Shown piece by piece: positions 6,598 through 64,000 of a stretch of DNA of 64,000 nt; position 1 is the stretch's first letter; each line of letters starts with the position of its first letter. The position numbers were made by a program, and so were the translations under genes. The stretch is taken from contig JAAZZB010000006.1 in the NCBI GenBank assembly GCA_014239365.1, forward strand, positions 75,189 through 139,188. The letters are read 5' to 3'. The notes below the pieces were generated by a model. It saw nothing but the letters and a program-made list of their open reading frames with translations. It made no database searches and was not told the DNA's origin. This DNA comes from Verrucomicrobiia bacterium. GTDB lineage: Bacteria > Verrucomicrobiota > Verrucomicrobiia > Limisphaerales > UBA1100.

Positions 6598-6694
6598 AGT
6601 GTTGGCCAAAACCGCCCGAAAAAGCGGGCCCGCGGCGTTGGGTCGCTCATCGCGGATGCGGGCAATCTAGCGACAAAACCCCGTCAGTCCAGCA

Positions 6695-9007: not shown

Positions 9008-9080
9008 GGCGGCTCTTCTACAACGCGCAAGCAGCCAATTCGACTATTTTTTGCCCCGCAACTCCAGCACCGCCATCGCT

Positions 9081-9150
9081 AACCACAGATTTCGCAGATT
9101 ACACAGATAACCCCAAAAAAAATCTGCGCTCATCTGCGTAATCTGCGGTT
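9081..9150. repeat. REP-like palindromic element ((CAGAT)x3 / (ATCTG)x3)
   Basis: AACCACAGAT TTCGCAGAT TACACAGAT ... ATCTGCGCTC ATCTGCGTA ATCTGCGGTT. Confidence 0.75.
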
Positions 9151-9158
9151 CAAAAAAA

Positions 9159-10940
9159 TCAAGCCGCCAAGTGAGCGCGGGAGATTTGTTGGGCTTGGGC
9201 GATTTGCTCGGGGGTCATGCAGCGGGCGGTGTGGCGTTTGTTTTTCTCGGCGATTTCCAGGCCGTGCGATGAGGCGCGGTTGAACCACACGTACGCGAGC
9301 ACGTAATCCTCCGGCACGCCGCGTCCGCGCAAATAGCAATCGGCCAAAATCAATTGGGCCTCGGGCACTTCCTGCGCGGCGGCGAGCTGGCACCACTTGG
9401 CCGCTTCGCCGGCATCCGCGTCCACGCCTTCGCCGTGATGATAGAGCGTCGCCAACACGTGCTGCGCCACGGCGTGCCCTTGCTTGGCGGCTTGGCGATA
9501 CCACGTGACGGCTTGATCCAAATTAGCCTCCGTGCCGCGACCGAGGTGCAGCATCACGGCGAGATTATATTGCGCCCGCGCCAAACCTTGATCCGCCGCC
9601 AACTCGTACCAGCGCAAAGCCGAAGTAAAATTCTGTTCCGTGCCGCGTCCCTGTTCGTGGAACGCGCCCAGATTGCACTGGGCGCTGGCGATGCTTTGTT
9701 CGGCCGCGAGCTTGTAATACTTGAGCGCTTTGACGTCATCGGCGGGCACGCCACGTCCGCGTGCGTGCATTGCGCCGAGGTTAAACTGCGCCGCCGCGTG
9801 GCCGGCATCGGCGGCGAGCGTGTACCAATCGGCGGCTTCCGTGAGATTTTCTGGAACGCCATCGCCGCGCTCGAGGCTGACCGCCAGCCGATACTGCGCT
9901 TCATTCACGCCGCCTTCGGCGGCTTTGCGCAGCCACTTCACAGCGGCCGCCGCATCGCGCGGCAGCGCCACGCCGTCATCCAGCGCGCGCCCGAGTAGCC
10001 ATTGCGCCTCGGTGTGATCGGCGGTGGCGGCTTGTTCCAGCCATTGCGCGGCTTCGGGCGAATGCGCTTCGAGTAAGTTACGGCCAAGATTGAATTGCGC
10101 GGGCAAGCAATTTTGTTCCGCCGCGCGGCGATACCATTCCATGGCTTCGCCGGCATCCGCATCCACGCCGATGCCTTCGGCAAGGCAACGACCCAAATTA
10201 TTTTGTGCAGCGGCGTGGCCGACTTCGGCGGCGGCGCGATACCAACGTGTGGTTTCCGTTTTGTCGGCATCCTCTTCAGCCGCCAACAAATCGGCCAAGT
10301 GCGCCTGGGCGGCGGCGTGATTTTTCTCGGCGGCTTTGGTGAGCCATTCCTTGGCGACTTCCAAATCTTTTTCCGCGCCACGCCCTTGCGCGCAGCGAAG
10401 GCCGAGGTTGAATTGCGCGGCGGTGTTGCCTTGCTCGGCGGCTTTGCGGAACCAACCGACGGCTTGGGCTTCATCGGCGTCCACGCCGGTGCCTTCGGAA
10501 AAGCATACGCCCAAATTATTTTGTGCCAACGCGAAGCCTTGCTCGGCGGCTTTCGTTAGCAACGCCGCGCCTTCGGATTCGTTGGCGGACACGCCGTTGC
10601 CGCGCACGAGCCGCCAGCCGAGGATGGCTTGGGCGCGCGCGTAGCCGAGCTCGGCGGCTTTACGATACCACTTGAGCGCGGCTTTGAGATCGGGCGCGCC
10701 GAGCGCATCGCTGGTGTACAGAAGGGCGAGATTATTCATCGCGGGCGGGAAGTCGCGCTTGGCGGCTTTGCGATACCATTTCTCGGCCTCCTTGAGATCG
10801 CCCTCGCCGCCGTCGCCGTCACCATTGGCAAGCTTCACGGCGAGCGTAAATTGCGCTTTGAGCACGCCATCTTTGGCTTGCGAGCGCAATTCTTTCAGTT
10901 CCGCTTTGGCGGATTTTTCTGCCTGTTTGTCTTCGGCCAT
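9159..10940 (-). CDS. Sel1-like repeat protein (about 15 repeats)
   Basis: Recurrent AQxNLG...G.GV..D...A..WY..AA.QG 36-aa units; start trimmed to MAEDKQ. Confidence 0.93.
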   Translation of the reverse strand: MAEDKQAEKSAKAELKELRSQAKDGVLKAQFTLAVKLANGDGDGGEGDLKEAEKWYRKAAKRDFPPAMNNLALLYTSDALGAPDLKAALKWYRKAAELGYARAQAILGWRLVRGNGVSANESEGAALLTKAAEQGFALAQNNLGVCFSEGTGVDADEAQAVGWFRKAAEQGNTAAQFNLGLRCAQGRGAEKDLEVAKEWLTKAAEKNHAAAQAHLADLLAAEEDADKTETTRWYRAAAEVGHAAAQNNLGRCLAEGIGVDADAGEAMEWYRRAAEQNCLPAQFNLGRNLLEAHSPEAAQWLEQAATADHTEAQWLLGRALDDGVALPRDAAAAVKWLRKAAEGGVNEAQYRLAVSLERGDGVPENLTEAADWYTLAADAGHAAAQFNLGAMHARGRGVPADDVKALKYYKLAAEQSIASAQCNLGAFHEQGRGTEQNFTSALRWYELAADQGLARAQYNLAVMLHLGRGTEANLDQAVTWYRQAAKQGHAVAQHVLATLYHHGEGVDADAGEAAKWCQLAAAQEVPEAQLILADCYLRGRGVPEDYVLAYVWFNRASSHGLEIAEKNKRHTARCMTPEQIAQAQQISRAHLAA

Positions 10941-11105
10941 CAGTGCAGCTGGTATTTTTCGCCGCGGCAACAAATGGATTGCACGCGGAAAACGGTCGTT
11001 TTTACCCGTTTTTCACGCGAAAAGCCAGTCATTCTCCTTGGCGAATGTATTTGGAAAAATAGAGCAACACTTGTGCCAAAGTCTGTTTTTTCCTGAAAAA
11101 CCCAC

Positions 11106-11140
11106 AAAAAACCCCGCCGCCCGCCGAAGCGAGGGGGGGG
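11106..11140 (-). terminator. Intrinsic terminator
   Basis: Minus strand CCCCCCCCTCGC-TTCG-GCGGGCGGCGGGG-TTTTTT: a cUUCGg tetraloop with a U-tract after the gene ending at 11178. Confidence 0.65.
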
Positions 11141-11177
11141 AAACAGGCAGGTTGGGTAACCCGTGATTGTCTGTTTT

Positions 11178-11879
11178 CTAATTCTTTTTGCCGCCCTTGC
11201 CGCCACGCTTTTGGCGTTTGAGGCGGGTATCGAACGTTTCCACTTCGCCATCACCATCGACCACTTTGATGATGGCCAAGCCGGTTGGGGTAGTGACAAA
11301 ATCCACGGTGGCATCCTCTTCACCTTCCTCGTCTTTGGCCTTCACCGTGGCGCGCAGACCGCGCTCGGTGGCTTTCCATTTGCCAACGTAGATGGGACCG
11401 CCTTTCAAATCTTCGCAGGGGGTGACGGTGAATGCGCCATCGGGTTTCACTTGCACAGAGAGATGCTCTTCATCGAACCATCCAACGTAGACACCCGCTG
11501 GCCCTTTTTCGGCCAATCGTTTGTTGCGCTTGAATTGGGGCATTCCGAATTCATCCACTTCGCCACCGGGTGAGATCACTTTCACCAGCGCGAGGTCACC
11601 GTTATCCACCGTGAACACGACTGTGCCTTCGTCGCCGGTGGGGTCTTTGAGCTTGGCGGTGAGGGTGTTGCCGTCGCGCTTCCACGTGCCGCGCATTGTG
11701 AACTTGGGGCGCTCGGCGCTGGGCCGGACGATGATGGAGCCATCGGCTTTGAGAATGGCGGTGGCGAGTTCGCCTTCGATTTCGCCTTTGTAAGTGCCGG
11801 CGATGGGCGGTGCTTTTTTGTCCGCACCTAACGCAATGAATGCGATGAGGCTGAACAGAGTGAAGAGTTTTGTTTTCAT
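11178..11879 (-). CDS. Secreted hypothetical protein with two tandem beta-rich repeats
   Basis: Signal peptide MKTKLFTLFSLIAFIALGA; repeats GTYKG..LKADGS..GTWK and GVYVG..VKPDGA..GKWK. Confidence 0.75.
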   Translation of the reverse strand: MKTKLFTLFSLIAFIALGADKKAPPIAGTYKGEIEGELATAILKADGSIIVRPSAERPKFTMRGTWKRDGNTLTAKLKDPTGDEGTVVFTVDNGDLALVKVISPGGEVDEFGMPQFKRNKRLAEKGPAGVYVGWFDEEHLSVQVKPDGAFTVTPCEDLKGGPIYVGKWKATERGLRATVKAKDEEGEEDATVDFVTTPTGLAIIKVVDGDGEVETFDTRLKRQKRGGKGGKKN

Positions 11880-51646: not shown

Positions 51647-52504
51647 TTACTTCGCCTTTGGGATGACCGCCTTCGCCAATTTCGCTGTCGAGATGAAGTA
51701 GCCAATCGGTTTATCCTTTTCATCGGTAATGAGCCAAGTGGCATCAGAAAAAGTGTTTTGTTCGTGAGTCGCGCCGACGTTGAGTGTCGCATAAATCTTC
51801 AGCCCGCCGCCGTATTCGACCCAGTAAAGCTTCACCTTACGGCCCGATTGGTTTTCAAAGACCACCGTCGTGAACGAGCCGGTCTTCGACTTGGGCGGTT
51901 TCTGGTCGCTCGCTGCAATCCATTTCAACGCGTCCATCGGCTTCGGCTCCGGCTTCTTGATAACCACGACCTTGCTCAAGTCGAGCCCGCGCACAATTTT
52001 CACCTTCGGCCGCGCCTTTTTAAACCGCGCCACGCCCGCGTCGGTCACATCAGTCTGCCAAACATAGAGCTGCTTGAGATTCTTGAGCTCCGCCAATTGG
52101 TCGAGCGACTTGTCGGTAATCTTCGTCGCGTATAAATTCAAGTACTCGAGGTCGGGCAGATTAACGAGATTGCCGATGCCCTCGTCACCAATCTTCGTGC
52201 GCTCGAGATGCAATCGGCGCAACTTCGTGAGGCCCTTGAGATGCAACAACCCGGCGCTCGTGATTTGCGTGTCGCGCAAGTTCAGAGCGATGACATTTTT
52301 CAACGCGGCCACATTCGCCAGCCCGTCATCAGTCAAGCCGCGCCCGCGCAAGTGAAACTCCACTTCCCATTGCTCCCCCTCGCCCGGATAAGGCAGCACG
52401 AGCCCACCGCTTTTTTTAATGGCCTCGAGTGTAGCGGAATCCGCCGCTTGCACACCAAACGACAATGACGAACAGAGTATCAATCCCAACAGTATCTTTT
52501 CCAT
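51647..52504 (-). CDS. Secreted LRR protein with C-terminal VHL-beta-like domain
   Basis: Signal peptide; 24-aa LRRs; VVFENQSGRKVKLYWVEYGG...YATL..G......TF....WLITD. Confidence 0.8.
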   Translation of the reverse strand: MEKILLGLILCSSLSFGVQAADSATLEAIKKSGGLVLPYPGEGEQWEVEFHLRGRGLTDDGLANVAALKNVIALNLRDTQITSAGLLHLKGLTKLRRLHLERTKIGDEGIGNLVNLPDLEYLNLYATKITDKSLDQLAELKNLKQLYVWQTDVTDAGVARFKKARPKVKIVRGLDLSKVVVIKKPEPKPMDALKWIAASDQKPPKSKTGSFTTVVFENQSGRKVKLYWVEYGGGLKIYATLNVGATHEQNTFSDATWLITDEKDKPIGYFISTAKLAKAVIPKAK

Positions 52505-52521
52505 GATCTTATTTTTCGAAA

Positions 52522-53685
52522 TTAGTTTTTGGTGAATTCCTTTGGGACGCTGCCATCGCCGGTGGCCTTGCCGCCGAGCAGCCACGCGAGGTTGAATCGG
52601 GCGACGGTGGAGCCGCCTTTGGGGCCACCTTCGAAGTGATGGAAAATCATACCTTCGGTCTCCGTGCCCGGGCGGCCGGAGGTGATCGACGAGTACGCGT
52701 GGGCACCGGCGAAGATGAGCCGCTTGATGGGCCATGTTTTGCCGCCGTCGAAGCTGGCCCACACGGTGCCGCGATTGCGAGCGTTTGGGCTGTCGCAGTT
52801 ACTGTAAATTAAAATGTCGCGGCCACGAATCGGCAACCGCGTAAGGCCGCCCATGCAGCCGTAGTTCGTATTTTGTGGACCGTCGGGCAGCGCCTTGCAG
52901 AAGGTGAGGTTTTTCCACGTCTGGCCGCCATCGGTGCTCGTGGCGGTCCAACGCCGCCGCGGGTTGGCGCCTTCCTCGGCCCAGTGACGGCGCGAGTTGT
53001 AATAAATTGTCCCATCGGCCAACTCCGCCAACGTCGCCTCGCCCGTGCCGTTGGCGGGGAAGGGGTCGCTCGTCTGCCACGTCTTGCCGCCGTCGTCGCT
53101 GAAGATGGCGTTGGTGTAATGCCGCGGCCAACTCGCGCGCTCGTTCTTGCCCGCATAAAAACGCGACGGCCGAATCAGCCGCCCTTTGTGTTTCCCGTGC
53201 CGGAGCGTGATGCCGTGCTCGTTCATGTGCATTGACGGCATATTGCCCTTTGAGTCCGGCTTGATTTTAAACTCAATCTGCTTCCACGACTTCCCGTCGT
53301 CCGTGCTGCGAAAAACCCGCAACGGCGCCGGCGGATGGCTGTCCTCCACGAAGGCGAGGATTGCGCCCGACGTCTCATCCACCGTCAACCCACCGCACTG
53401 AAAGCCCGGCTTCGCGATGACAATCTCCGCCCCCCAAGTTTTCCCGCCATCCTCACTGCGCCGCGCGCGCACGCTGCGAGTGCCAAAGGTGGTCAGCACT
53501 GTCCCCTTCAACGTCACCACCACATTGGGCATCCGTTCGCTTTTAAAAACTTGCGTCATCTCCAATCGCGGTTTGCCAAGAAACGGCTTCAGCGATCCTT
53601 CAACAACTGGGGTGCACTCGGCGGCGTGGACAAAGCCCGCGAGGTAACTTCCCGCCAGCATTAGAATGAAACGAATATTTTTCAT
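52522..53685 (-). CDS. Sialidase-like BNR/Asp-box protein
   Basis: RMP motif; five S.DGGKTW-type Asp boxes; AYS. Confidence 0.88.
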   Translation of the reverse strand: MKNIRFILMLAGSYLAGFVHAAECTPVVEGSLKPFLGKPRLEMTQVFKSERMPNVVVTLKGTVLTTFGTRSVRARRSEDGGKTWGAEIVIAKPGFQCGGLTVDETSGAILAFVEDSHPPAPLRVFRSTDDGKSWKQIEFKIKPDSKGNMPSMHMNEHGITLRHGKHKGRLIRPSRFYAGKNERASWPRHYTNAIFSDDGGKTWQTSDPFPANGTGEATLAELADGTIYYNSRRHWAEEGANPRRRWTATSTDGGQTWKNLTFCKALPDGPQNTNYGCMGGLTRLPIRGRDILIYSNCDSPNARNRGTVWASFDGGKTWPIKRLIFAGAHAYSSITSGRPGTETEGMIFHHFEGGPKGGSTVARFNLAWLLGGKATGDGSVPKEFTKN

Positions 53686-55351: not shown

Positions 55352-56509
55352 TCAGCGATTCGACCGGAAGCGACCCGGTGGCAGGCTGAATTGTCGTTGA
55401 AAGGCCCGCACCATGACTTCCAAATGTTGATAGCCCGTGCGCTCAGCGATGGCGGCGAGGGGGTAATCGGTTTCGATGAGCAATCGCCGAACGTGTTCCA
55501 GCCGCGCGCGGCGTATCTCGGCCGCGGGCGTGCGGCCAAGGGCTTGGGTGAACCGATGCTCCAACGAACGCCGCGACACGAAGAGCGCCTTTTGCAAATC
55601 ACTAACCTTCAGCGGTTCGGTCGAATGATCGCGGATGTGTCGCAACGCAGCGGCCACGAGAGGATCTTCCACCGCGGCGGTATCGGTGGATTGCCGCTGC
55701 ACCACCCCCACCGGCGGCACGTGGATTGGCTTCGCGGGCGCGCGACGTCCAGACATCAATCGATCCAACAACGCCGCCGCCTCGCGGCCCACGCGCAGTG
55801 GCGATTGATCAATGTTCGACATCGGCACGGGTGCCAGCGAATTCATCACCGAATCGTGCTCGGCACACAGCACCGCCAAATCGTCCGGCACGAGCAACCC
55901 ATTCGCGCTGCACGCGGCGATGACTTCGCGCCCGACTTCGCCGTTCCAAACCAGCAACGCCGTCGGATGCCGCAAGCCGCGCAGCCAGTCGACCAGCCGT
56001 TGGCGCTGCTGATGCAAAGGCCGACGATGCTCCCTCGATTTGCCAGAAAACGAAACGCACTCAAAACCCGCCGCGCGCGTGGCGATGGCAAACTCCGCGC
56101 CGAGCACATCCGCATAACGCGGCTGCCCCACCGGTCCCACGTAAGCGAATGACCGAAACCCTTTCTCCACAAAATGACTCGCCGCCAACCGCGCGCACGC
56201 CGATTCATCGGAGGACACCCGCGGGATGGCGCGGCTGTGCTCGCCCTGCCACGAAACATTGACCGCCGACAACCCGCGCCGCCGAAGCGCCCGTTCCTGC
56301 GCGCGATCCACCAACCGCAGGATAACCCCATCCCCGCGCCAACCCTTCGGCAACTGCATCGTCTCCAGCAACCCGCGCGGTTCGATATGCAAATCCCACG
56401 GCCCGTGCTCGCGCGCATAATCCGCCACGCCCCGCAACAACTGCCGATGCCACTCACTCGTCGTCTGCACCAACAACGCCACCCGCCGAGTTTTCCGTTT
56501 CCGCGCCAC
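55352..56509 (-). CDS. XylR-type regulator (LacI-like sensor plus AraC HTH)
   Basis: RRVALLV..LLRGVADYA, VPDDLAV, VSRRSLEHRF, IAERTGY; divergent from phnA. Confidence 0.92.
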   Translation of the reverse strand: MARKRKTRRVALLVQTTSEWHRQLLRGVADYAREHGPWDLHIEPRGLLETMQLPKGWRGDGVILRLVDRAQERALRRRGLSAVNVSWQGEHSRAIPRVSSDESACARLAASHFVEKGFRSFAYVGPVGQPRYADVLGAEFAIATRAAGFECVSFSGKSREHRRPLHQQRQRLVDWLRGLRHPTALLVWNGEVGREVIAACSANGLLVPDDLAVLCAEHDSVMNSLAPVPMSNIDQSPLRVGREAAALLDRLMSGRRAPAKPIHVPPVGVVQRQSTDTAAVEDPLVAAALRHIRDHSTEPLKVSDLQKALFVSRRSLEHRFTQALGRTPAAEIRRARLEHVRRLLIETDYPLAAIAERTGYQHLEVMVRAFQRQFSLPPGRFRSNR

Positions 56510-56605: not shown

Positions 56606-57844
56606 ATGGCGGATTTTTCGATAAATGGAATAGACTACCGGTTGCCCTCGGGGCCGGTGGCGGTGATTTGCGTGGATGGCTGCGAGGAGGCGTATTTGGA
56701 TGTGGCGCTGGCACGGGGCCGGATGCCGCAGTTGGCGCGGATTTTGGACGGCGGCTGGCGCGGGGTGGCTCGCGGGGCGTTGCCTTCGTTTACGAATGTG
56801 AATAATGCGGCCATCGTCACGGGGGTGCCGCCGGTGGTGACGGGGTTGAGCGGGAATTTCTTTTTAGATCCGGACACGGGCGAAGAGGTGATGATGAATA
56901 GCTCGGATTTTTTGCGCTGCGAAACTTTGCTGGCCGCCGCCGCGCGTGCGGGCCGTACGGTGGCGATGGTGACGGCGAAGGAGAAGCTGCGCGATTTACT
57001 TTCGCCGGGGCTCTTTGATGAGGGCGTAACGGGGATGGCGTTTTCCGCCGAGAAAGCCGCCGAGGCGCGCGAGGCCACGCATGGCATTGGCGATGTGGAG
57101 GCGTTGGCGGGCGACACGCCTCCTATCTATAGTGGCGAGGCGAGCGTGTATGTGCTGCGCGCGGGCGCGGCTTTGGTGGAAGCGGGCCGCGCGGATTTTT
57201 TGTATCTTTCGCTGACGGATTATATTCAACACAAATTCGCGCCGGAAGAGGAAGGCGCGCTGGAATTTTACGAAGCCCTCGACGTGCAACTCGGGCGGTT
57301 GACGGATCTTGGCTGCCGCCTCGGCATCACTGCCGACCACGGGATGAACGCCAAATGCCACGCCGACGGCACGCCGCGCGTGATTTATGTGGAGGATGTT
57401 TTGCGCGAACAATTTGGCGACGGTCACAAAGTAATTTGTCCCATCACCGATCCGTACGTTGTGCACCACGGCGCGTTAGGTTCGTACGTGACGGTTCATC
57501 TTGCCGACCCAAATCGTGCCGAAGAAATTGCCGAATGGCTACGCACGCTCGATGGCGTGACGGAAGTGCTGTCCAAAGCCGAAGCGGCGGAGGCATTGGA
57601 ATTGCCAGCCGACCGGATCGGCGACCTCATCGTGATGAGCGCGGCGGATACGGTCGTTGGCCGAAGCCCGGAATATCACGACCTCTCTAAACTGGATCGT
57701 CCACTGCGTTCGCACGGCGGTCGGTTTGAAACGAGGGTGCCGTTTATTTTCTCCGGGCCGCTGAACGCCGAGTACGCGGCAAAGGCTGCGGATGATCCGC
57801 GCAATTTTGATGTGTTTGATTTTGTGTGTAATGGGATCGAATGA
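56606..57844 (+). CDS. phnA: Phosphonoacetate hydrolase
   Basis: ICVDGCE, PSFTNVNN, YLSLTDYIQHK, TADHGMN, DPYVVHHGALGS, LRSHGG. Confidence 0.95.
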   Translation: MADFSINGIDYRLPSGPVAVICVDGCEEAYLDVALARGRMPQLARILDGGWRGVARGALPSFTNVNNAAIVTGVPPVVTGLSGNFFLDPDTGEEVMMNSSDFLRCETLLAAAARAGRTVAMVTAKEKLRDLLSPGLFDEGVTGMAFSAEKAAEAREATHGIGDVEALAGDTPPIYSGEASVYVLRAGAALVEAGRADFLYLSLTDYIQHKFAPEEEGALEFYEALDVQLGRLTDLGCRLGITADHGMNAKCHADGTPRVIYVEDVLREQFGDGHKVICPITDPYVVHHGALGSYVTVHLADPNRAEEIAEWLRTLDGVTEVLSKAEAAEALELPADRIGDLIVMSAADTVVGRSPEYHDLSKLDRPLRSHGGRFETRVPFIFSGPLNAEYAAKAADDPRNFDVFDFVCNGIE

Positions 57845-57855
57845 TGATTGAACAA

Positions 57856-57920
57856 GGACTCGCAAGCTCGCCCCTCAAATGAGAGGCGACAGTATAATGG
57901 AGGGAGGAGCTTGCGAATCC
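57856..57920. repeat. REP-like inverted repeat between phnA and phnY
   Basis: GGACTCGCAAGCTCGCCCCTC ... GAGGGAGGAGCTTGCGAATCC; TATAAT in the loop at 57893. Confidence 0.7.
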
Positions 57921-57949
57921 CTTTACTAGTCCAAAAAAAGAATTTCAAA

Positions 57950-59380
57950 ATGAACGAGACTGAACAAACTAAAATACTGGAACTACCGTGCTACATCGCT
58001 GGCGAAGCAGTGGGCGGGGAATTGCTCGATGTAATTTATCCGTACACCGGCAAGGTGGCGGGGCGTGTGCGGCAGGTGGATGGCGCGGGATTGGAGCGGG
58101 CGCTGACGGCGACACAACCGGTCGAGCTGACGCGTTGGGCGCGACACGAAATTTTGATCAACGCGCGCGGATTGTTGTCCGACCGCGCGGAGGAATTTGC
58201 ACAGCTCATTCGCAGCGAGACGGGACTGTGCATGCGCGAGACGCGTTACGAGGTGGGGCGGACGCAGGATGTGCTGCAGTTCGCGGCGATGGAGGCGCTG
58301 AAGGACGACGGCCAGATTTTTTCGTGTGACATTTCGCCGCAAGGGCAGGCGCGCAAAATTTTTACAATGCGCGAGCCGTTGAAATTAGTGGCGGCCATCA
58401 CGCCGTTTAATCATCCGCTCAATCAAGTGGCGCACAAACTTTCGCCGGCCATCGCGGCGGGCGCGCCAGTGATTCTCAAACCCTCGGAGAAAACGCCGCT
58501 CACTGCGCTGCGCTTCACCGAACTGCTATACGAAGCGGGTCTGCCGCCGGAAATGCTCAGCACGATTGTCGGGCCGCTGGATTCGGTAGTCACGCCGCTC
58601 ATCGCGGATGATCGCGTGGAACTGGTGAGCTTCACCGGCAGCGTGGCCATCGGCAAAACGATTTCGCGCACGGCGGGCTACAAAAAACTTTGCCTCGAGC
58701 TGGGCGGCAACTCGCCGCTCATCGTGTTGGACGATGCGGATCTTGAACTCGCCGTGAAACTCGCCGCCGAGGGGTGCTTCCGCAATTCCGGCCAACGCTG
58801 CACGGCAGTGAAGCGGCTGCTCATTCACGAGGCCCTGCTCGGCGAATTTACCGAAGCCTTTGTGGCGAAGCTAGCGGAGTATCCCTGCGGCGATCCCGCC
58901 GATGACGCCACGCGCGTGGGCACGGTCATTGATGAAAATTCCGCCAAGTTGCTGGCGTCGCGCGTGGAAAAAGCCGTGGCCGATGGTGCGCGTGTTTTGG
59001 CCGGCGGCAATCGCGAGGGCGCGTTGCTCGAGCCCACCATCATTGCCGATGTGCCGCGTGATGCGGAGATGGTCGTGCAGGAATCCTTCGGCCCGCTTGC
59101 GCCGATTATGCCGGTGAAGGATTTGGACGACGCCATTGCGTATGCCAATGGCACGGCGTTCGGGCTGTCCTCGGGCGTGGTCACCAACAACATGGACGCC
59201 ATGCTCGCGTGCGTGAAAGGCATTCGCACCGGCACGGTAAACATCAACGCCGTGCCCGGCTATCGCATCGAGAGCTCGCCGTTCGGCGGCGTGAAAGATT
59301 CCGGCCTCGGCATTAAAGAAGGTGTCATCGAATCCATCAAATATATGTCCAACGTGAAAACTTTTTCGCTGCCATGGTAA
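57950..59380 (+). CDS. phnY: Phosphonoacetaldehyde dehydrogenase
   Basis: ALDH motifs ITPFNHPLNQVAHK, LELGGN, NSGQRCTAVKR; FSCDIS and PGYRIE; phn context. Confidence 0.93.
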   Translation: MNETEQTKILELPCYIAGEAVGGELLDVIYPYTGKVAGRVRQVDGAGLERALTATQPVELTRWARHEILINARGLLSDRAEEFAQLIRSETGLCMRETRYEVGRTQDVLQFAAMEALKDDGQIFSCDISPQGQARKIFTMREPLKLVAAITPFNHPLNQVAHKLSPAIAAGAPVILKPSEKTPLTALRFTELLYEAGLPPEMLSTIVGPLDSVVTPLIADDRVELVSFTGSVAIGKTISRTAGYKKLCLELGGNSPLIVLDDADLELAVKLAAEGCFRNSGQRCTAVKRLLIHEALLGEFTEAFVAKLAEYPCGDPADDATRVGTVIDENSAKLLASRVEKAVADGARVLAGGNREGALLEPTIIADVPRDAEMVVQESFGPLAPIMPVKDLDDAIAYANGTAFGLSSGVVTNNMDAMLACVKGIRTGTVNINAVPGYRIESSPFGGVKDSGLGIKEGVIESIKYMSNVKTFSLPW

Positions 59381-60498
59381 ATCAAAACGACAAACCCCTC
59401 TTCACCCCCGGCCCGCTCACCACCAGTCCCACGGTGAAAGCCGCGATGGGGCGCGACCTCGGCTCGCGCGACACAGAATTCATCGGCATCATTCACGACC
59501 TTCGCAACAGCCTGTTGCAACTCGCCGGTGTTTCGCAAGCCGATGGTTGGGAGGCGGTGCTGATGCAGGGTAGCGGCACGTTTTCGATTGAGTCGGTGCT
59601 TTCGTCCATCACACCGCCCGACGGCAAATGGCTCGTCATCATCAACGGTGCATACGGCGAACGTATTTTGAAAATCATCAAGCGGCACGGCTTTGCCGCC
59701 GAGGCGATTCGCTGTTCGGAAAACGAATTGCCCGACCTCGCCGGCATCGCGGCAGCGCTTGGCAAAGGCGGGTTCACGCACGTTGCCGTTGTGCATTGCG
59801 AAACGACTTCCGGCATTATGAATCCCATTGCGGAGATTGGCGCGTTGGCGAAGGAGCGCGGCTGCGTTTATTTTGTCGATTCGATGAGCGCATTTGGCGG
59901 AGTGGAATTTGACTTCGCCGGCAGCCAACTCGATTGCCTCGTGTCGAGCGCCAACAAATGCGTGCAGGGCGTGCCGGGTTTTGGCTTTGCGATTTGTCGG
60001 CGCGAATTGCTGGAAGCCACCGAAGGCCACGCGCGCACCATCAGCCTCGACCTCACTGCGCAATGGCGCGGCTTGGAGGGCAACGGTCAGTTTCGGTTTA
60101 CGCCGCCGACGCACACGCTGCTTGCTTTTGCGCAGGCGTTGGGCGAGTTGGACGAAGAAGGCGGCATCGCCGCGCGCGCCGCGCGTTACCGCGCCAACCA
60201 CGATGCGTGCGTGGCGGGGATGCGCGCGATGGGCTTCACGGAATACGTTCCGGAACATTTGCAAGGCCACATCATCACGTCGTTTTTGTATCCCACGGAT
60301 GATTTTGATTTCGAAGATTTTTACAATCGCTTAAACGAAAAGAGCTTCGTCATTTATCCCGGCAAAGTGACGAAGGCCAATTGCTTCCGCATCGGCCACA
60401 TCGGCCATTTGTTCCCCGCCGACACCGAAGCGCTGCTGACTGCCATCCGCGCCGTGGCCACTGAAATGAATCTGTCCATCGAGGCCAAGCCTGCATAA
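59374..60498 (+). CDS. phnW: 2-aminoethylphosphonate-pyruvate transaminase
   Basis: LFTPGPLTTS, MQGSGT, HCETTSG, DSMSAFG, SSANKC (PLP Lys), QFRFTPPTH, VIYPGK. Confidence 0.95.
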   Translation: MVNQNDKPLFTPGPLTTSPTVKAAMGRDLGSRDTEFIGIIHDLRNSLLQLAGVSQADGWEAVLMQGSGTFSIESVLSSITPPDGKWLVIINGAYGERILKIIKRHGFAAEAIRCSENELPDLAGIAAALGKGGFTHVAVVHCETTSGIMNPIAEIGALAKERGCVYFVDSMSAFGGVEFDFAGSQLDCLVSSANKCVQGVPGFGFAICRRELLEATEGHARTISLDLTAQWRGLEGNGQFRFTPPTHTLLAFAQALGELDEEGGIAARAARYRANHDACVAGMRAMGFTEYVPEHLQGHIITSFLYPTDDFDFEDFYNRLNEKSFVIYPGKVTKANCFRIGHIGHLFPADTEALLTAIRAVATEMNLSIEAKPA

Positions 60499-60506
60499 AC
60501 TTCCGT

Positions 60507-61823
60507 ATGTCCGACCCTTCTTCCACCGAGCAAGACGCGCGCTACACCCACTGGCGCTGGCGCATCTTCTTCATCACTTGGATCGCGTACGCCGGATTTT
60601 ATCTTACCCGCAAATCATTTTCCGTCGCCAAAATTGGGATGGAAAAAGATCCATCAATCAATTTGGATCCCGCAATGATGGGGGCGCTGGATGCGTCCTA
60701 TCTCGTCGCCTATGCCATTGGCCAATTTGTTTGGGGCATGTCCGCCGATCGTCTGGGCACGCGCAAGGTCGTGCTCGGCGGTTTGTTAACCTCCGTCGTC
60801 GCCGGCGTGGCGATGGGTTTTTCGTCTGCCACATTAATGTTTGGCGGCTTGTTATTTGTTCAGGGCTTGGCGCAATCCACCGGTTGGGCGCCGCTTACAA
60901 AGAACGTCAGTTTTTGGTTTCCACAAAAACAGCGCGGAGTGATCTACGGATTTTGGTCCACCAACTATGCGGTGGGCGGCTTGATCGCTGCACCCATCGC
61001 CGGATTCCTCGCGGTGTATTTTGGCCATTGGCGATATGCGTTTTGGGGGCCCGCAATTATTTTACTCGGCGTATGGGTGCTGTTTTTAATGCTTCAACGA
61101 AATCAACCCGAAGATGTGGGTTTGCCTCCGGTGGATGAAACCGAGGAAGACAAGGTGGATGGAAATTCAGAGAGTGGCGAAGCTGAAGCAAAAGCTAATT
61201 GGTGGAAAACCTCCCTGCAAGTTTTGAAAAACAAGCAGGTGTTAATTATGGCCGCCAGTTATTTTTTTCTGAAGCCAACCCGCTACGCCATAATTTTTTG
61301 GGGACCCTATATGGTGAACAAAAAACTCGGCACCAATGAGTTGGACTCCGCCATCACCAGCGCCATCTTCGATGGGGCCGGCGTGTTGGGCGCGTTGGCG
61401 GCCGGGATTGCATCCGATAAAATTTTCAAATCCAGACGTATGCCCGTGTGTGTTGTTTCGTTGGCAGTCTTGGCCGTCACTCTGTTTATGTTCGACACCT
61501 TCACCAGCACCGGCAGTCATCTGATGATGGGCGTGTTGCTGTTCGCCATCGGGTTTTTCATTTATGGGCCGGACTCCATTTTGGCCGGCGTTGCCGCAGT
61601 GGATTTTGGCACCAGCAAAGGTGCCGGCACCTCGGCGGGCTTCATCAATGGCTGCGGCTCCATTGGCGCCATCCTGGGCGGATCGCTGCCGGGGGTCATC
61701 TACTTACATTACGGCTGGGGCACGCTGTTTAATATTCTTGGAGCATCAGTTTTTATTGCCGCCATTCTGCTTGCTACCCGCTGGAATGCGGTTCCCACCA
61801 CACAATCTAAGTCACCCGCATGA
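60507..61823 (+). CDS. MFS transporter, organophosphate:Pi antiporter (GlpT/UhpT) family
   Basis: WRWRIF..TWIAYAGFYLTRKSF, QSTGW, WFPQKQRG, AGFING.G. Confidence 0.88.
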   Translation: MSDPSSTEQDARYTHWRWRIFFITWIAYAGFYLTRKSFSVAKIGMEKDPSINLDPAMMGALDASYLVAYAIGQFVWGMSADRLGTRKVVLGGLLTSVVAGVAMGFSSATLMFGGLLFVQGLAQSTGWAPLTKNVSFWFPQKQRGVIYGFWSTNYAVGGLIAAPIAGFLAVYFGHWRYAFWGPAIILLGVWVLFLMLQRNQPEDVGLPPVDETEEDKVDGNSESGEAEAKANWWKTSLQVLKNKQVLIMAASYFFLKPTRYAIIFWGPYMVNKKLGTNELDSAITSAIFDGAGVLGALAAGIASDKIFKSRRMPVCVVSLAVLAVTLFMFDTFTSTGSHLMMGVLLFAIGFFIYGPDSILAGVAAVDFGTSKGAGTSAGFINGCGSIGAILGGSLPGVIYLHYGWGTLFNILGASVFIAAILLATRWNAVPTTQSKSPA

Positions 61824-63064
61824 ATCAATCGAATGGAACGCTGAACCTTGCTGACTTGATTGCCTCGCGGCGCGAGGGACATTCGATGCCGCAAGAATTT
61901 TACACGGACGCCGCGGTGCACGTGGCGGATGTGGAGCGGATTTTTAAGCGACAATGGGTGTTCATCGGGCACTCGTGTCAAATTATTGAAGCGGGGGAAT
62001 TTTTTACGGTCACGATTGGGGACGACCCCTTGATAATTATTCGCGGCGATGACGGCGTCATTCGCGCGCTGCATAATGTATGCCGACATCGGGGAACGCT
62101 CATCAGTCGCGAGAGCTGCGGCAAGGCGCGGCGGTTGGTTTGTCCGTATCATCAGTGGACCTACGAACGCGATGGCAAGCTCGCTTCGTGTCGAGGGATG
62201 CACGAAATCAATCGAGACGAACATTCGCTGCTCCCCGCGCACTTGGAGGATTTGGAGGGAATGCTCTTCGTGTGCCTCGCGGACACGCCGCCGGATTTCG
62301 TCGCCGCGCGCGAAGCGATGGCGGAAGTCGTGCGCCCGCAACGAATGGGCAAAGCGAAGGTGGCAAAGATTGTCGATTACGAGGTCGGCTCAAACTGGAA
62401 ACTTGTTTGGGAAAACAACCGCGAATGCTACCACTGCAACGTCAATCACCCGCAATACATCAAAGCAAACTTCGACCATTTCAATAGCGACGACACCACG
62501 CCGCGCGTGCAGCAACGCATCACGGCCGCCGCCGAGCGACACGCCGTCCAATGCGCGAAGAATGGGCTCGAAGTCACCCACAAAGAAACGGGCATGGCGA
62601 CTTTCCCGGACCCCGATCGTGGCCTGTGGTTTTCCGCCAACCGCACCACGCTCGTCGATGGCTACGTCAGCGAAACGATGGACGGCCAACAAGTCGCGCC
62701 GCTCATGGGCGATTACACCGACGCCGACGTGGGCACGATGCGCTGCCGCACGATGCCGAATATGTGGAACCATTCCAGCTGCGATCACGTCGTAAGCACG
62801 CGCCTTTTGCCGACCGCCGCCAACCGAACCCAAGTGCGCGTGATGTGGCTCGTGCATCCCGACGCCGAGGAGGGCCGCGATTATGATTTGGAAAAACTCA
62901 TGCCCTTTTGGCAACTCACCAGCGAGCAGGATTGGGAGCTATGCGAATTCGCGCAGACTGGCATCACCTCCAGCGCCTACCGCCCGGGCCCGTATTCCAC
63001 CCCCAAAGAATACAACGTCGACGCCTTCGTGCGATGGTACTTGGAGGCTTTGCAAAATGGTTAA
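61820..63064 (+). CDS. Rieske non-heme iron oxygenase alpha subunit, GbcA/Stc2-like (quaternary amine N-demethylase type)
   Basis: CRHRG...CPYHQWTY; NWKLVWENNRECYHC...HP; WLVHPDAEEGRDYD...W..T.EQD; YRPGPYS. Confidence 0.88.
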   Translation: MNQSNGTLNLADLIASRREGHSMPQEFYTDAAVHVADVERIFKRQWVFIGHSCQIIEAGEFFTVTIGDDPLIIIRGDDGVIRALHNVCRHRGTLISRESCGKARRLVCPYHQWTYERDGKLASCRGMHEINRDEHSLLPAHLEDLEGMLFVCLADTPPDFVAAREAMAEVVRPQRMGKAKVAKIVDYEVGSNWKLVWENNRECYHCNVNHPQYIKANFDHFNSDDTTPRVQQRITAAAERHAVQCAKNGLEVTHKETGMATFPDPDRGLWFSANRTTLVDGYVSETMDGQQVAPLMGDYTDADVGTMRCRTMPNMWNHSSCDHVVSTRLLPTAANRTQVRVMWLVHPDAEEGRDYDLEKLMPFWQLTSEQDWELCEFAQTGITSSAYRPGPYSTPKEYNVDAFVRWYLEALQNG

Positions 63065-64000
63065 CCAACCCAAAACCGCAAACATCGTCATCGTCGGCGG
63101 CGGCGCCGTGGGGTGCGGCGTTGCGTATTCGCTGGCGAAGGCGGGCGTCGAAGATGTTTTGCTTTTGGAAAAAGAATCGACGCTCGCGGCGGCAACTTCC
63201 GGCCAAGCGGCGGGGCTCGTCGGCCAAGTGCGCAACAGCGTGGAGCGCACGCAACTCGCGATGTGGTCGGTGCAGACGTTTAGCGAATTGCAAGCAGACG
63301 ACACTGCCAACCCCGGTTGGCGGCAAGTCGGCTCGCTGCGCGTGGCGCTGAATGACGAACGCGTCGCGGAGTTTGAGGGCATGAAAGCGGTGGCGGATGA
63401 AGCCGGTTTGGAAACGGAATTCATCGACCCCACTGCCGCGCAAACACATTGGCCGCTGATGGATTTTTCCGCAGCGAAGGCGGTGCTTTGGTGCGCGTCC
63501 GATGGCTATCTGCAACCGAGCGACCTCACCATGGCGTACGTGGCGCACGCGCGGAAATTGGGCGCACAGTTTTTGACGAGCACACCCGCGCGCGAAATTC
63601 GCCTTGAGGGCGGTCGCGTCACCGGCGTGGAAACCGACGCGGGCATCATCGAATGTAAAACGGTCATCAACGCCGCGGGCGCGCACGCCTTTCACGTCGC
63701 GCAAAGCGTCGGACTCGAGCTGCCGATCGTGCCGGTGCGCCATGAATTTTTCGTGACCGTCCACGCCGATGGCCTCGTGCCCGAGCTGCCGGTGGTGCGC
63801 ATTCCGGATGCCACGCTGTATTTGCGCGCGGAAACCAACGCGCTGCTCTGCGGCGGCTGGGAACCGGAAGGGCTCTCGACTGACCCGCGCGGTTTCGCGC
63901 TGACCGCCGAGCCGCCCGCTATCGAGCCGGATTACGAAGTGCTCGGTTGGTTCGCCGAACAACTCGCGCCGCACTTGCCGAAGGTAAACGATCTCGGCCT
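63057..64000 (+). CDS. FAD-dependent oxidoreductase, sarcosine/dimethylglycine dehydrogenase-like (runs off the window end)
   Basis: Not in the ORF track; my translation gives MVNQPKTANIVIVGGGAVGCGVAYSLAKAG...TSGQAAGLV...GWRQVGSLRVA...SDGYLQP...VINAAG; overlaps the Rieske stop. Confidence 0.85.
   Translation, partial: MVNQPKTANIVIVGGGAVGCGVAYSLAKAGVEDVLLLEKESTLAAATSGQAAGLVGQVRNSVERTQLAMWSVQTFSELQADDTANPGWRQVGSLRVALNDERVAEFEGMKAVADEAGLETEFIDPTAAQTHWPLMDFSAAKAVLWCASDGYLQPSDLTMAYVAHARKLGAQFLTSTPAREIRLEGGRVTGVETDAGIIECKTVINAAGAHAFHVAQSVGLELPIVPVRHEFFVTVHADGLVPELPVVRIPDATLYLRAETNALLCGGWEPEGLSTDPRGFALTAEPPAIEPDYEVLGWFAEQLAPHLPKVNDLG

Follow-up and report, generated by a model that had tools for sequence, protein, structure and literature searches.

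Ten genes, from phnA to the gene of an EtfD-like membrane protein, follow each other on the same strand at the end of the 64,000-nt stretch of DNA that was analysed (the window) and beyond it, with a divergent regulator gene in front and a convergent esterase gene behind the 661-aa Fe-S/CCG gene (Table 1). As described in the initial annotation, phnA, phnY, phnW and the genes of an MFS transporter, a Rieske oxygenase and an FAD oxidoreductase (DAO1) all lie on the plus strand and are tightly joined, at +3 nt for phnA-phnY, -7 for phnY-phnW, +8 for phnW-MFS, -4 for MFS-Rieske and -8 for Rieske-DAO1. Over all ten genes the junctions range from -8 to +8 nt except at two places, where 111 and 285 nt intervene. 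These gaps are filled by REP-like palindromes that recur throughout the genome (221 BLAST HSPs, counted without removal of the query's own locus and its self-palindromic matches). The same gene order is found in two independent assemblies, PhnY-PhnW-MFS-Rieske-DAO1-DAO2 in L003 (86-93% amino-acid identity) and PhnW-MFS-Rieske-DAO1-DAO2 in L109 (90-94%), so that the arrangement is no assembly artefact. ETF genes, foreseen by the initial annotation as a possibility past position 64000, are present there as etfB and etfA; a GcvT domain, a reductase and a folate gene, also to be looked for there, were not found in the cluster, the genes past base 64000 included. The open reading frame of phnA opens at 56549, the ATG at 56606 matching the profile start, and the match of PhnA spans positions 2-407 of the 408 of TIGR02335. 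For phnY the ATG at 57950 is probably the actual start, while DAO1 starts with the ATG at 63057 (7246 in L002), with GGAGG 10 nt upstream and a frame of 410 aa.

Table 1. Genes of the operon and the divergent regulator gene. Positions refer to the 64,000-nt window; genes past its end are given in window-equivalent coordinates.
Feature	Position	Strand	Basis
XylR/AraC-type regulator, divergent	55352..56509	-	Pfam Peripla_BP_3, HTH_18, PBP1_XylR: periplasmic-binding-protein-like sensor and AraC HTH
phnA, phosphonoacetate hydrolase	56606..57844	+	TIGR02335 486.4 bits (cut-off 407.55)
phnY, phosphonoacetaldehyde dehydrogenase	57848..59380	+	TIGR03250 604.7 bits; Pfam Aldedh 442 bits
phnW, 2-aminoethylphosphonate:pyruvate transaminase	59374..60498	+	NF010006 448.9 bits (cut-off 296)
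MFS transporter, organophosphate:Pi antiporter (OPA; GlpT/AepP-like)	60507..61823	+	TIGR00881 265 bits, GlpT 199 bits
Rieske non-heme iron oxygenase alpha subunit	61820..63064	+	Pfam Rieske and Ring_hydroxyl_A
DAO1, FAD-dependent amine dehydrogenase	63057..64289 (cut by window end, 64000)	+	Pfam DAO 204 bits
DAO2, second FAD enzyme	64401-65672 (past window)	+	Pfam DAO
etfB	65669-66421 (past window)	+	Pfam ETF
etfA	66707-67681 (past window)	+	Pfam ETF_alpha
EtfD/DgcB-like membrane Fe-S/CCG protein, 661 aa	67678-69663 (past window)	+	Nitrate_red_gam (NarI-like), Fer4 (4Fe-4S), 2xCCG

The PhnW-PhnY-PhnA pathway converts 2-aminoethylphosphonate (2-AEP) to acetate and phosphate. PhnA and PhnW pass their equivalog cut-offs, PhnW also those of TIGR02326 (426.3 bits; cut-off 400.8) and TIGR03301 (415.1; 360.8), and PhnY falls slightly below its cut-off of 635.65, with the next best model at 411 bits. 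Together with the GlpT-like MFS transporter, these enzymes resemble the known combination of PhnW-PhnY-PhnA with the permease AepP, from which the operon differs by the coupled or contiguous Rieske gene, two DAO genes, etfBA and the EtfD-like gene downstream. PhnX, PhnZ-like proteins, a PhnZ/TmpB-type HD protein and PhnJ were not found in this genome, which is 93.6% complete. The transporter stays under the cut-offs of TIGR00881 and GlpT and shares 27% identity with E. coli GlpT, of whose residues R45 and R269 are kept, with K80 replaced by Q and H165 by Y. An identity to GlpT of 27.75% is reported for AepP in the available text (PMC8316502), the likeness of AepP to the operon transporter being drawn via GlpT. 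Orthologs with 45-50% identity adjoin the Rieske gene in L004, L013, L112, L126, L134, L136 and L162, whereas MFS proteins encoded beside phnA in other Verrucomicrobiota are 24-27% identical. Judged by sequence, the transporter belongs to a Rieske-associated subfamily of the organophosphate antiporter type and not to a betaine transporter type.

By its active-site motifs, the Rieske protein is predicted to be an oxygenase of the demethylase type. It carries the motif C88-x-H90...C108-x-x-H111, and alignment to Stc2 (H204/H209/D360) places the iron ligands at H205, H210 and D371, with N200 at the position of CntA-Y203. This Asn, the Rieske motif, the His-His-Asp triad, the bridging Glu and a Cys-x-x-Cys beside the iron are held in common with GbcA/BmoA and Stc2; identity to canonical members is 38-43%, and among solved structures the protein comes closest to Stc2 and a Ruegeria homolog. 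Although NCBIfam GbcA is the best named model, its score of 385.5 bits is far under the cut-off of 670 and the protein falls into a separate clade in trees, so that canonical GbcA identity was rejected. The protein is rather assigned to a new clade of group Vb (N-demethylase type) distinct from GbcA/BmoA/Stc2, which comprises 91 of the 149 rows of the Rieske tree (74 non-Chloroflexi and 17 Chloroflexi-type; 58 other rows). Conserved in the clade are R308 (100%), R310 (99-100%), Y213, S320, F363 and W372, where canonical sequences carry L, F, L, L, V and R, respectively; by alignment, several of these residues lie next to the iron ligands and to the Trp that contacts the product in Stc2, as described in the available text (PMC10952381). 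A two-residue F-P insertion at 262-263 further distinguishes the protein from GbcA/BmoA (glycine betaine) and Stc2 (stachydrine), and so do its partners, since a GbcB-type reductase is adjacent in 27/41 canonical but only 1/39 clade loci, while a DAO-family partner accompanies 77/91 clade rows and 2/58 others. A Rieske reductase, of GbcB type or otherwise, was found neither in the cluster nor in the genome, whose sole FNR-like gene is devoid of a ferredoxin domain and in which the operon Rieske gene is the only Ring_hydroxyl_A gene found, with no second Rieske oxygenase.

DAO1 and DAO2, of about 410-423 aa, have their best solved-structure match in the FAD domain of dimethylglycine dehydrogenase (DMGDH; E 2.7e-48 and 1.7e-39). 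The initial description of the FAD enzyme as sarcosine/DMG-dehydrogenase-like holds in part, as both proteins lack the folate (GcvT) domain of DMGDH/SarDH, so that any formaldehyde would be released free, and as DAO1 groups with PbfC. DAO1 is 32% identical to the phnWX-adjacent DAO of Azospirillum B510, which we take to be PbfC from its position in an unannotated record, and the two are sisters in two trees (SH-aLRT 95 and 91) that contain a single, long-branched PbfC sequence. DAO1 thus appears nearest to the N-methyl-AEP dehydrogenase PbfC, at an identity too low to establish membership of that family. At 10 genome loci its orthologs adjoin the Rieske gene, and at an eleventh, L015, the ortholog lies about 5 kb downstream of it. 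DMGDH-like FAD domains, with both ETF subunits (alpha and beta) and an Fe-S/CCG membrane protein encoded nearby, are shared with DMGDH/SarDH, which work with ETF and ETF:quinone oxidoreductase, and with bacterial DgcAB, which works with EtfAB; instead of an ETF:quinone oxidoreductase, the quinone-reducing partner here would be of the NarI-like/CCG type, presumably EtfD or DgcB by name, the domains being what was tested. DAO-family enzymes within AEP clusters have a counterpart in PbfC and PbfD (Zangelmi et al., 2023; PMC10590968). According to the available text of that work, PbfC is a dehydrogenase that converts N-methyl-AEP to phosphonoacetaldehyde and methylamine and does not demethylate, trimethyl-AEP is accepted by none of the Pbf enzymes, the acceptor of PbfC is unknown, in contrast to the ETF genes in the operon here, and no cluster combines different Pbf subgroups, whereas two DAO enzymes occur together here (PMC10590968). 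The paper mentions neither Rieske nor ETF (0 occurrences each), both of which are present in the operon.

Linkage of the Rieske clade to phn genes, on whose conservation the initial reading had been made to depend, recurs, the neighbours being phnA/phnY/phnW or an ABC transporter of the AEP type. When PhnA, PhnY, PhnW, AepX-like SBP and OPA MFS on the same contig are counted as AEP-type markers, they accompany 18/74 non-Chloroflexi clade rows (14/43 on contigs of at least 8 kb), 0/17 Chloroflexi-type rows and 0/58 other rows. The non-Chloroflexi clade is found beside AEP genes in Verrucomicrobiota, Burkholderiales and Actinomycetota, in at least three unrelated architectures. In the Burkholderiales locus L029, a DAO-GcvT and a Rieske gene face phnW and the genes of an AEP-type ABC transporter in convergent orientation, followed by gntR-phnA-phnY, and the SBP of this transporter shares 55% identity with a protein annotated as 2-AEP SBP; in the Actinomycetota loci L035 and L037, a PbfD-like DAO (29% identity over 387 aa with the phnW-adjacent DAO of A. 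baumannii) is divergent from phnA-phnY-Rieske; on the metagenome contigs L117, L125 and L133, the Rieske gene and the gene of an AepX-like SBP point away from each other; and L168 combines PhnW, a PbfD-like DAO and Rieske. PhnA is above cut-off in 7/8 Verrucomicrobiota genomes with this Rieske gene and is a contig-end fragment in the eighth, against 4/400 in a sample of other Verrucomicrobiota genomes with the Rieske gene in 0/400, counts that overstate the support since the carrier genomes are related and not independent. The linkage is not universal, as the Chloroflexi subclade, which shares the R-x-R signature but has MttB, kinases and aldolase as neighbours, and some Planctomycetota carry the module with no C-P cleavage gene found. 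PhnA, PhnX and PhnJ were not found in G003, G005, G029, G032, G036 and 7/12 Chloroflexi (PhnZ was sought in five of them), all MAGs, for which such absence is not proof; G003 and G005 correspond to the Planctomycetota loci L005 and L007, the former with the full Rieske-DAO1-DAO2-ETF set.

As explanation for the ten-gene operon we favour, with moderate confidence, a breakdown of tri-, di- and mono-methyl-AEP along with plain AEP, in which the methylated forms supply PhnY and PhnA and the electrons are taken up by ETF; it is the gene context that points to methylated AEPs as substrates. After import of the phosphonate by the GlpT/AepP-like transporter, the Rieske oxygenase would hydroxylate the quaternary amine at one of its N-methyl groups, yielding formaldehyde and dimethyl-AEP, possibly monomethyl-AEP; to our knowledge, no flavin amine oxidase can attack quaternary amines. 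DAO1, which is PbfC-like, and DAO2 would continue with the oxidation of these tertiary and secondary amines. They would either strip the remaining methyl groups to give AEP for transamination by PhnW, or cleave the C2-N bond as PbfC does, to phosphonoacetaldehyde and methylamine or dimethylamine. Electrons would pass from DAO1/DAO2 via EtfAB and the membrane Fe-S/CCG protein to quinone, PhnY would oxidise phosphonoacetaldehyde to phosphonoacetate and PhnA would release acetate and phosphate from the latter; the regiochemistry of DAO1/DAO2 and the coupling to ETF are what we infer. As PbfC cleaves rather than demethylates, the flow may enter at phosphonoacetaldehyde, bypassing PhnW. The initial proposal of a stepwise demethylation of trimethyl-AEP to AEP for PhnWYA is backed by the recurrent phn linkage and the co-occurrence of PhnA, but less so in its final part. 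Its novelty stands in so far as no report of a Rieske route for methylated AEP was found in the literature searched. TmpA/TmpB, a 2-oxoglutarate oxygenase and an HD-domain oxygenase, convert trimethyl-AEP, the same proposed starting compound, to glycine betaine and phosphate by oxidative C-P cleavage, whereas hydrolytic cleavage by PhnA after demethylation is proposed here. TmpAB is the only trimethyl-AEP route described, according to the available text of PMC10590968. With its breakdown genes for AEP, a common phosphonate, joined to an oxygenase and two flavin enzymes, this marine bacterium can probably use N-methylated AEP as well.

Alternatively, Rieske-DAO1-DAO2-ETF might be a self-contained module for the demethylation of glycine betaine or another carboxy-betaine that merely landed by phnAYW in this lineage, which we consider unlikely. 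With the Rieske enzyme leading to dimethylglycine and the two FAD dehydrogenases to sarcosine and glycine, three enzymes for three methyl groups would constitute the exact set to glycine; GbcA as best named model, the nearest solved structures and the DMGDH match of both DAO proteins agree with this, the module stands alone in L005, L015, L119 and L131, and betaine catabolism of Pseudomonas is also accompanied by ETF and a DgcB-like Fe-S protein. Yet the low GbcA score and the separate clade, the canonical Arg by the Asp iron ligand replaced by Trp along with two new Arg, the rarity of an adjacent GbcB-type reductase and the missing folate domains argue against it, as do a linked transporter of the organophosphate antiporter and not the betaine carrier type, AEP markers beside the clade in several unrelated architectures but beside none of the other rows, and PhnA in the Verrucomicrobiota carriers as compared with the phylum sample.

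Still less probable appears the demethylation of the phosphate ester phosphocholine (and N-methyl-phosphoethanolamines) by a module that has only niche or regulator in common with phnAYW. Phosphocholine is isosteric with trimethyl-AEP, the antiporter type of the linked MFS would suit it, the R-x-R motif is common to the Chloroflexi subclade, whose clusters have a choline/ethanolamine-kinase-like gene and no AEP markers, and in some carriers no gene for C-P cleavage was found; but this reading would leave unexplained both the translational coupling to phnW, phnY and phnA and the independent recurrence next to phnA/phnY, AepX-type transporters and Pbf-like oxidases, PhnA and PhnW score as true equivalogs, and the operon has no gene for phosphoethanolamine use. 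We know of no precedent for oxidative demethylation of phosphocholine. Equally improbable is that the module handles only mono- and di-methyl-AEP, or N-methylated 1-hydroxy-AEP, as secondary and tertiary amines, with trimethyl-AEP no substrate and the Rieske enzyme a second, oxygen-dependent demethylase beside the flavoenzymes. PhnW, retained in the operon, fits a pathway ending in AEP, the related Stc2 removes two methyl groups in turn from a quaternary, then a tertiary amine (PMC10952381, available text) and monomethyl-AEP is described as the common natural derivative; however, mono-methyl-AEP and, in part, di-methyl-AEP are within the reach of Pbf-type flavoenzymes on their own (both PMC10590968, available text), beside which a Rieske enzyme would be redundant, and the characterised group V enzymes all use quaternary ammonium substrates, as stated in the available text of PMC7948474.

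The divergent regulator of the operon has an ortholog with 84% identity that adjoins phnA in L100. In L005, a Rieske/DAO/ETF locus, a homolog with 37% identity lies some 8 kb away from the Rieske gene.

2-Aminoethylphosphonate (AEP) ranks, together with the forms methylated at its nitrogen, among the most common phosphonates in nature. To our knowledge, N-methylated amines are not usable by the transaminase PhnW, and we know of no flavoenzyme that attacks the quaternary form. Catabolism of the phnA type is widespread in the sea, as stated in passages of PMC8316502, and PMC10590968 presents TmpAB as the sole described route for trimethyl-AEP.

The initial annotation had read phnA, phnY, phnW, an MFS gene, a Rieske alpha subunit and an FAD oxidoreductase as neighbours on the plus strand, and these six genes are confirmed, with junctions of +3, -7, +8, -4 and -8 nt in order from phnA through the first DAO-family gene, DAO1. 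The same gene order is found in two independent assemblies, as PhnY-PhnW-MFS-Rieske-DAO1-DAO2 in locus L003 and as PhnW-MFS-Rieske-DAO1-DAO2 on metagenome contig L109, and given this repetition the arrangement is real. The assignment of phnY is supported by its position between phnA and phnW. Past position 64000, where a GcvT domain, a reductase, ETF or folate genes had been envisaged, ETF genes are indeed present, but no GcvT domain, reductase or folate genes were found there.

Features of the operon and its surroundings (L002, contig stretch with the operon and its downstream part)
Feature	Position	Strand	Match or description
371-aa protein	51647-52762	-	leucine-rich repeats; weak VHL beta domain match (27.8 bits)
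XylR/AraC-type regulator	upstream of phnA, divergent
phnA	56606-57844	+	TIGR02335 486.4 bits, above equivalog cut-off 407.55
phnY	57848/57950-59380	+	TIGR03250 604.7 bits (cut-off 635.65); next model 411 bits
phnW	59374-60498	+	NF010006 448.9 (cut-off 296), TIGR02326 426.3 (cut-off 400.8); above three equivalog cut-offs
MFS, organophosphate:Pi antiporter (OPA) type	60507-61823	+	TIGR00881 265 bits (cut-off 407.75)
Rieske oxygenase alpha subunit	61820-63064	+	Pfam Rieske 68.7 bits
DAO1, DAO-family FAD enzyme, 410 aa	63057-64289 (crosses window end)	+	DAO domain, no GcvT
G+C-rich palindromic element, DAO1-DAO2 gap	L002 8494-8561 (window-equivalent 64305-64372)
DAO2, 423 aa	111 nt after DAO1		DAO domain alone
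etfB	overlaps DAO2 by 4 nt
G+C-rich palindromic element, etfB-etfA gap	L002 10611-10895 (window-equivalent 66422-66706)
etfA	285 nt after etfB
661-aa protein	overlaps etfA by 4 nt		NarI-like membrane part, 4Fe-4S dicluster, two CCG domains
Esterase	downstream of the 661-aa protein, convergent		closes the unit
666-aa protein	L002 17093-19093 (window-equivalent 72904-74904), downstream of the operon		Schlafen group 3 DNA/RNA helicase domain (263 bits)

The palindromes in the gaps are REP-like and recur over many of the genome's contigs (221 BLAST HSPs, counted raw and with the query's own locus included), and both larger gaps are read as palindrome insertions into one operon. Promoter-like sites (6 versus 5.7 expected) and terminator-like sites (34 versus 23.9 expected, sd 5.3) within the operon were uninformative for its limits. 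The genome itself comprises 3.3 Mb in 89 contigs and is 93.6% complete, and its Rieske gene is most closely related to those of MAGs labelled Verrucomicrobiota. Sequencing runs holding the stretch amounted to 20 rows, marine or seawater metagenomes, four of which, from a single study, contain at least half of the sampled words; among the public runs listed, none was an RNA run. Apart from the operon, the leucine-rich repeat protein listed in the table has as its neighbours two DUF1501 genes and one gene for a BNR-repeat protein.

The Rieske protein carries the [2Fe-2S] motif C-x-H...C-x-x-H at C88, H90, C108 and H111 (pattern search) and an iron triad, H205, H210 and D371, aligned with H204, H209 and D360 of the stachydrine demethylase Stc2; D371 is invariant across all groups of a 149-row tree. 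Alignment to Stc2 equally displays a Cys-x-x-Cys pair, and the bridging Glu, E202, stands three residues ahead of H205, as E205 does before H208 in CntA. At the position of CntA Y203, group Va C-N-cleaving enzymes have Tyr or Phe and group Vb demethylases Asn, according to PMC7948474, and by this rule N200, found in 100% of the new clade and in 94% of canonical GbcA/BmoA-type rows, places the protein among the demethylases of group Vb. Identity as GbcA was rejected, as the NF058607 score of 385.5 bits compares with an equivalog cut-off of 670 and the protein falls into a separate clade in two trees. It shares 38-43% identity with homologs from Rhizobiaceae and Halomonadaceae. In an 81-sequence tree it groups with 39-40 rows in a clade separate from the 41 canonical ones, and in the 149-row FastTree, built from 160 loci and the window protein after 12 loci with a match below 90% of the query had been dropped (among them L004, L162 and L168), the new clade has 91 rows and the remainder 58.

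The new clade is set off from the canonical enzymes by Arg at positions 308 (100%; canonical Leu) and 310 (99-100%; canonical Phe), by Tyr at 213 and Ser at 320 (both canonical Leu), by Phe at 363 (canonical Val) and by Trp at 372 (canonical Arg), with R340 present in 80-88% of its rows. W372 immediately follows the Asp ligand in the alignment to Stc2, and F363 is located just ahead of the Trp which, as described in the relevant section of PMC10952381, touches the product in Stc2. This signature may represent a rebuilt anion site.

An HMM made from 12 reductases neighbouring canonical Rieske genes detected an adjacent GbcB-type reductase (FNR plus [2Fe-2S]) at 27 of 41 canonical loci versus 1 of 39 new-clade loci, and none in the window's cluster. 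The genome has one Rieske oxygenase, and the sole FNR-like gene found in it, which is also the one match of the HMM in the genome (contig C78, 10602-11630; about 240 aa), adjoins gcvT and combines FAD_binding_6 and NAD_binding_1 without a ferredoxin domain; the long Arg-rich N-terminal extension of its open reading frame is probably not coding. Fer2 matches in the genome were only weak, 31 and 23 bits, inside open frames of 616 and 263 aa. ETF as the donor, considered as an explanation of the missing reductase, was discarded, since most loci of the clade are without ETF genes and, by reasoning, the redox direction is unfavourable.

A DAO-family enzyme accompanies the Rieske gene in 77 of 91 new-clade rows versus 2 of 58 other rows, and the type of partner varies with lineage. 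In Verrucomicrobiota, Planctomycetota and one Armatimonadota it is DAO1 (405-410 aa), with orthologs at 11 genome loci, adjoining the Rieske gene in ten and located about 5 kb downstream in L015. Among genome loci DAO2 orthologs occur only in L003, L005 and L015, together with ETF genes in the latter two, the contig of L003 ending within DAO2; they are also present on metagenome contigs L109, L112, L119 and L131. Neither DAO1 nor DAO2 of this operon contains the GcvT-type folate domain taken as the mark of a DMGDH or SarDH, and DAO1 is thus not a complete counterpart of the sarcosine/DMG dehydrogenases to which the initial annotation had likened it, whereas the partner in Burkholderiales and Chloroflexota is an 810-aa DAO-GcvT protein which does have the folate domain.

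DAO1 and the Actinomycetota partner resemble Pbf flavoenzymes. DAO1 is 32% identical (E 4e-44) to the DAO encoded immediately after phnW-phnX on plasmid pAB510a of Azospirillum sp. B510; the record has no annotation, and from species and location this DAO is taken to be PbfC. The DAO1 clade is sister to this single PbfC sequence (SH-aLRT 95 with LG+G4, 91 in a quick PMSF tree), from which a long branch separates it, and in both trees the two stand apart from the folate-domain DMGDH-like enzymes; a tblastn search of plasmids with the Azospirillum DAO, which might have split the long branch, matched itself alone. For the Actinomycetota partner, a 387-aa alignment with 29% identity links it to the Acinetobacter baumannii DAO whose gene directly precedes phnW-phnX, a position that is the PbfD1 arrangement.

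According to PMC10590968, PbfC and PbfD convert N-methyl-AEP to phosphonoacetaldehyde and methylamine, PbfD1 additionally accepts dimethyl-AEP, and trimethyl-AEP is a substrate of no Pbf enzyme; PbfC is described there as a dehydrogenase of poor reactivity with O2 whose acceptor is not known, and Pbf subgroups as never occurring in the same cluster. Neither Rieske nor ETF is named in the main text of that paper; its supplementary sequence lists and cluster drawings may show Rieske-containing clusters. Placed ahead of Pbf-type enzymes, a Rieske demethylase would close precisely the gap to which its authors point. Domains of an ETF chain are present in the operon, namely Pfam ETF (139 bits), ETF_alpha with ETF, and CCG (two stretches), Fer4_8 and Nitrate_red_gam, with no NCBIfam equivalog at or above cut-off for these proteins. 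The encoded ETF with the membrane Fe-S/CCG oxidoreductase would be a natural acceptor for a Pbf-type enzyme.

Linkage to AEP genes was assessed by tblastn, requiring at least 40% identity for PhnA and PhnW, 48% for PhnY, 45% for an AepX-like binding protein and 40% for the OPA MFS, each match spanning at least 30% of the query. With these thresholds a marker was found on 18 of 74 non-Chloroflexi rows of the clade (14 of 43 on contigs of at least 8 kb; 13 of 74 when counting phn or AepX markers only), on 0 of 17 Chloroflexi-type rows and on 0 of all 58 other rows; L027 fell short of the threshold, its PhnW being 39% identical. Several distinct architectures occur. All genes are in one operon in the window's lineage, while in the Burkholderiales locus L029 NUDIX, DAO-GcvT and Rieske genes face phnW and the genes of an AEP-type ABC transporter in convergent orientation, and gntR-phnA-phnY comes next; the transporter's binding protein is 55% identical to the annotated 2-AEP binding protein beside phnWX of Azospirillum lipoferum. 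In Actinomycetota, the DAO gene is divergent from phnA-phnY-Rieske (L035, L037) or the Rieske gene lies about 1 kb beyond gntR-phnW-phnA-phnY (L036). On metagenome contigs L117, L125 and L133 AepX-like and Rieske genes are divergent, and on L168 PhnW, DAO and Rieske are consecutive. Such different architectures argue for repeated selection and not for a single inherited accident. PhnW above cut-off was not found in the genomes of L035 and L037, which suggests a transaminase-free route. In these two loci (6056-11754 and 5630-11756, respectively) the PbfD-like DAO, phnA, phnY and Rieske genes are followed by a glutathione peroxidase gene.

At the level of genomes, the Rieske gene occurred in none of 400 other genomes sampled from the window's phylum, four of which have PhnA; as this precluded a two-by-two table, the 38 genomes behind the new-clade loci were used instead, yielding counts and not a test, with related genomes non-independent. 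Fifteen of the 38 have PhnA above cut-off; in addition, three Actinomycetota have matches of 346-387 bits beside PhnY, and one genome has a PhnA fragment at a contig end. Among Verrucomicrobiota carriers seven of eight have PhnA above cut-off and the eighth a fragment, versus none of 12 Chloroflexota carriers. PhnX reached its cut-off in 6 of 38, including four Chloroflexota and genome G024, where phnX-phnW is 15 kb from the Rieske gene, and PhnW in 16 of 26. PhnJ was found in none of 18 genomes searched and a PhnZ-type protein in one of five. In 12 MAGs of unstated completeness (G003, G005, G029, G032, G036 and seven Chloroflexota) PhnA, PhnX and PhnJ were all not found. In MAG G030, the genome of L032, PhnA (C35:15074-16285) is split across several frames and PhnX (C25:32775-33530) has three in-frame TGA codons, which reflects either gene decay or faults in the assembly.

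The transporter is 27% identical to Escherichia coli GlpT. R45 and R269, which we take to be the phosphate-binding arginines of GlpT, are kept in the window's MFS, R45 also in seven of eight Rieske-linked orthologs (L004 has no letter there) and R269 in all eight. K80 is replaced by Gln in the window protein and seven of eight orthologs (Met in L162), and H165 by Tyr throughout. PMC8316502 also has a statement on the role of these GlpT residues. Orthologs of 45-50% identity are located beside the Rieske gene on contigs without phn genes (L013, L126, L134, L136, L162 and L112), and this suggests that on those contigs, as well, the substrate carries a phosph(on)ate group. Other Verrucomicrobiota have next to phnA an MFS of a different subfamily, 24-27% identical.

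The initial annotation had proposed that trimethyl-AEP is demethylated stepwise to AEP, which then feeds PhnWYA. Its link to AEP catabolism is well supported; the substrate and the exact steps are what we infer. We lean towards the view that the operon serves methylated AEPs, with either removal of the methyl groups until AEP is left or an entry through phosphonoacetaldehyde. One Rieske enzyme and two DMGDH-like enzymes would suit the conversion of glycine betaine to glycine as well, and the module is complete in L005, in the genome of which PhnA, PhnX, PhnJ and a PhnZ-type protein were not found, an observation that speaks against methylated AEP. The Rieske protein, however, fails the GbcA cut-off, belongs to a separate clade and has no adjacent GbcB-type reductase, and a glycine betaine module is accordingly considered unlikely. 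Phosphocholine as the substrate is judged more improbable still, and a system acting on no quaternary substrate at all just as improbable as phosphocholine.

For the methylated-AEP reading a broader formulation is offered tentatively, as somewhat less likely to be right than wrong. The R-x-R motif, replacing the canonical Arg beside the iron-binding Asp, would define a new Rieske subfamily specialised for phosph(on)ate-bearing quaternary amines, which together with PbfC- or PbfD-like flavoenzymes would constitute a third, oxygen-dependent trimethyl-AEP route, one that spans at least five phyla and concludes with hydrolysis of the C-P bond through PhnY and PhnA, with the flavoenzymes of the window lineage wired to a dedicated ETF/EtfD chain. 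If so, this chain would answer the question of the physiological electron acceptor of PbfC. Should the operon act as its context suggests, ETF would be the missing acceptor of PbfC-type dehydrogenases, Rieske demethylases would gain a new substrate class, and the phosphonoacetate pathway a new entry by which P, N and C are released from methylated AEPs; marker genes would become available to trace methylated-phosphonate turnover in metagenomes. The phnWYA core, the AepP-like permease, Pbf flavoenzymes, group Vb Rieske demethylases, TmpAB and the DMGDH/ETF chain are already known, whereas the combination of these parts and the Rieske clade itself are new. Among the papers listed by full-text searches of openly available literature, judged by their listings and abstracts, none described a Rieske enzyme taking part in the breakdown of phosphonates. 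The methylated-AEP idea is directly testable, as the needed substrates have all been synthesised already, according to the methods passages of PMC10590968.

Inside the new clade, the Chloroflexi subclade (L010, L014, L016-L020, L022-L024, L028 and L046) has the R-x-R signature and a conserved cluster of its own (e.g. L024 400-20900), which encodes a DeoR regulator, two DAO-GcvT proteins, a PfkB kinase, an MttB-family methyltransferase, a choline/ethanolamine-kinase-like protein, a class II aldolase, a CBS protein, an SBP_bac_6 ABC transporter and a permease. The cluster resembles a pathway for quaternary amines that still lacks an explanation; its substrate probably differs, phosphocholine being a guess. 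An MttB-family methyltransferase is also encoded on metagenome contig L112 (10001-18810), where Rieske, DAO2, etfB, etfA, DAO1, methyltransferase and OPA-type MFS genes are consecutive, that is, oxygen-dependent and usually corrinoid-dependent demethylation systems stand beside one organophosphate transporter.
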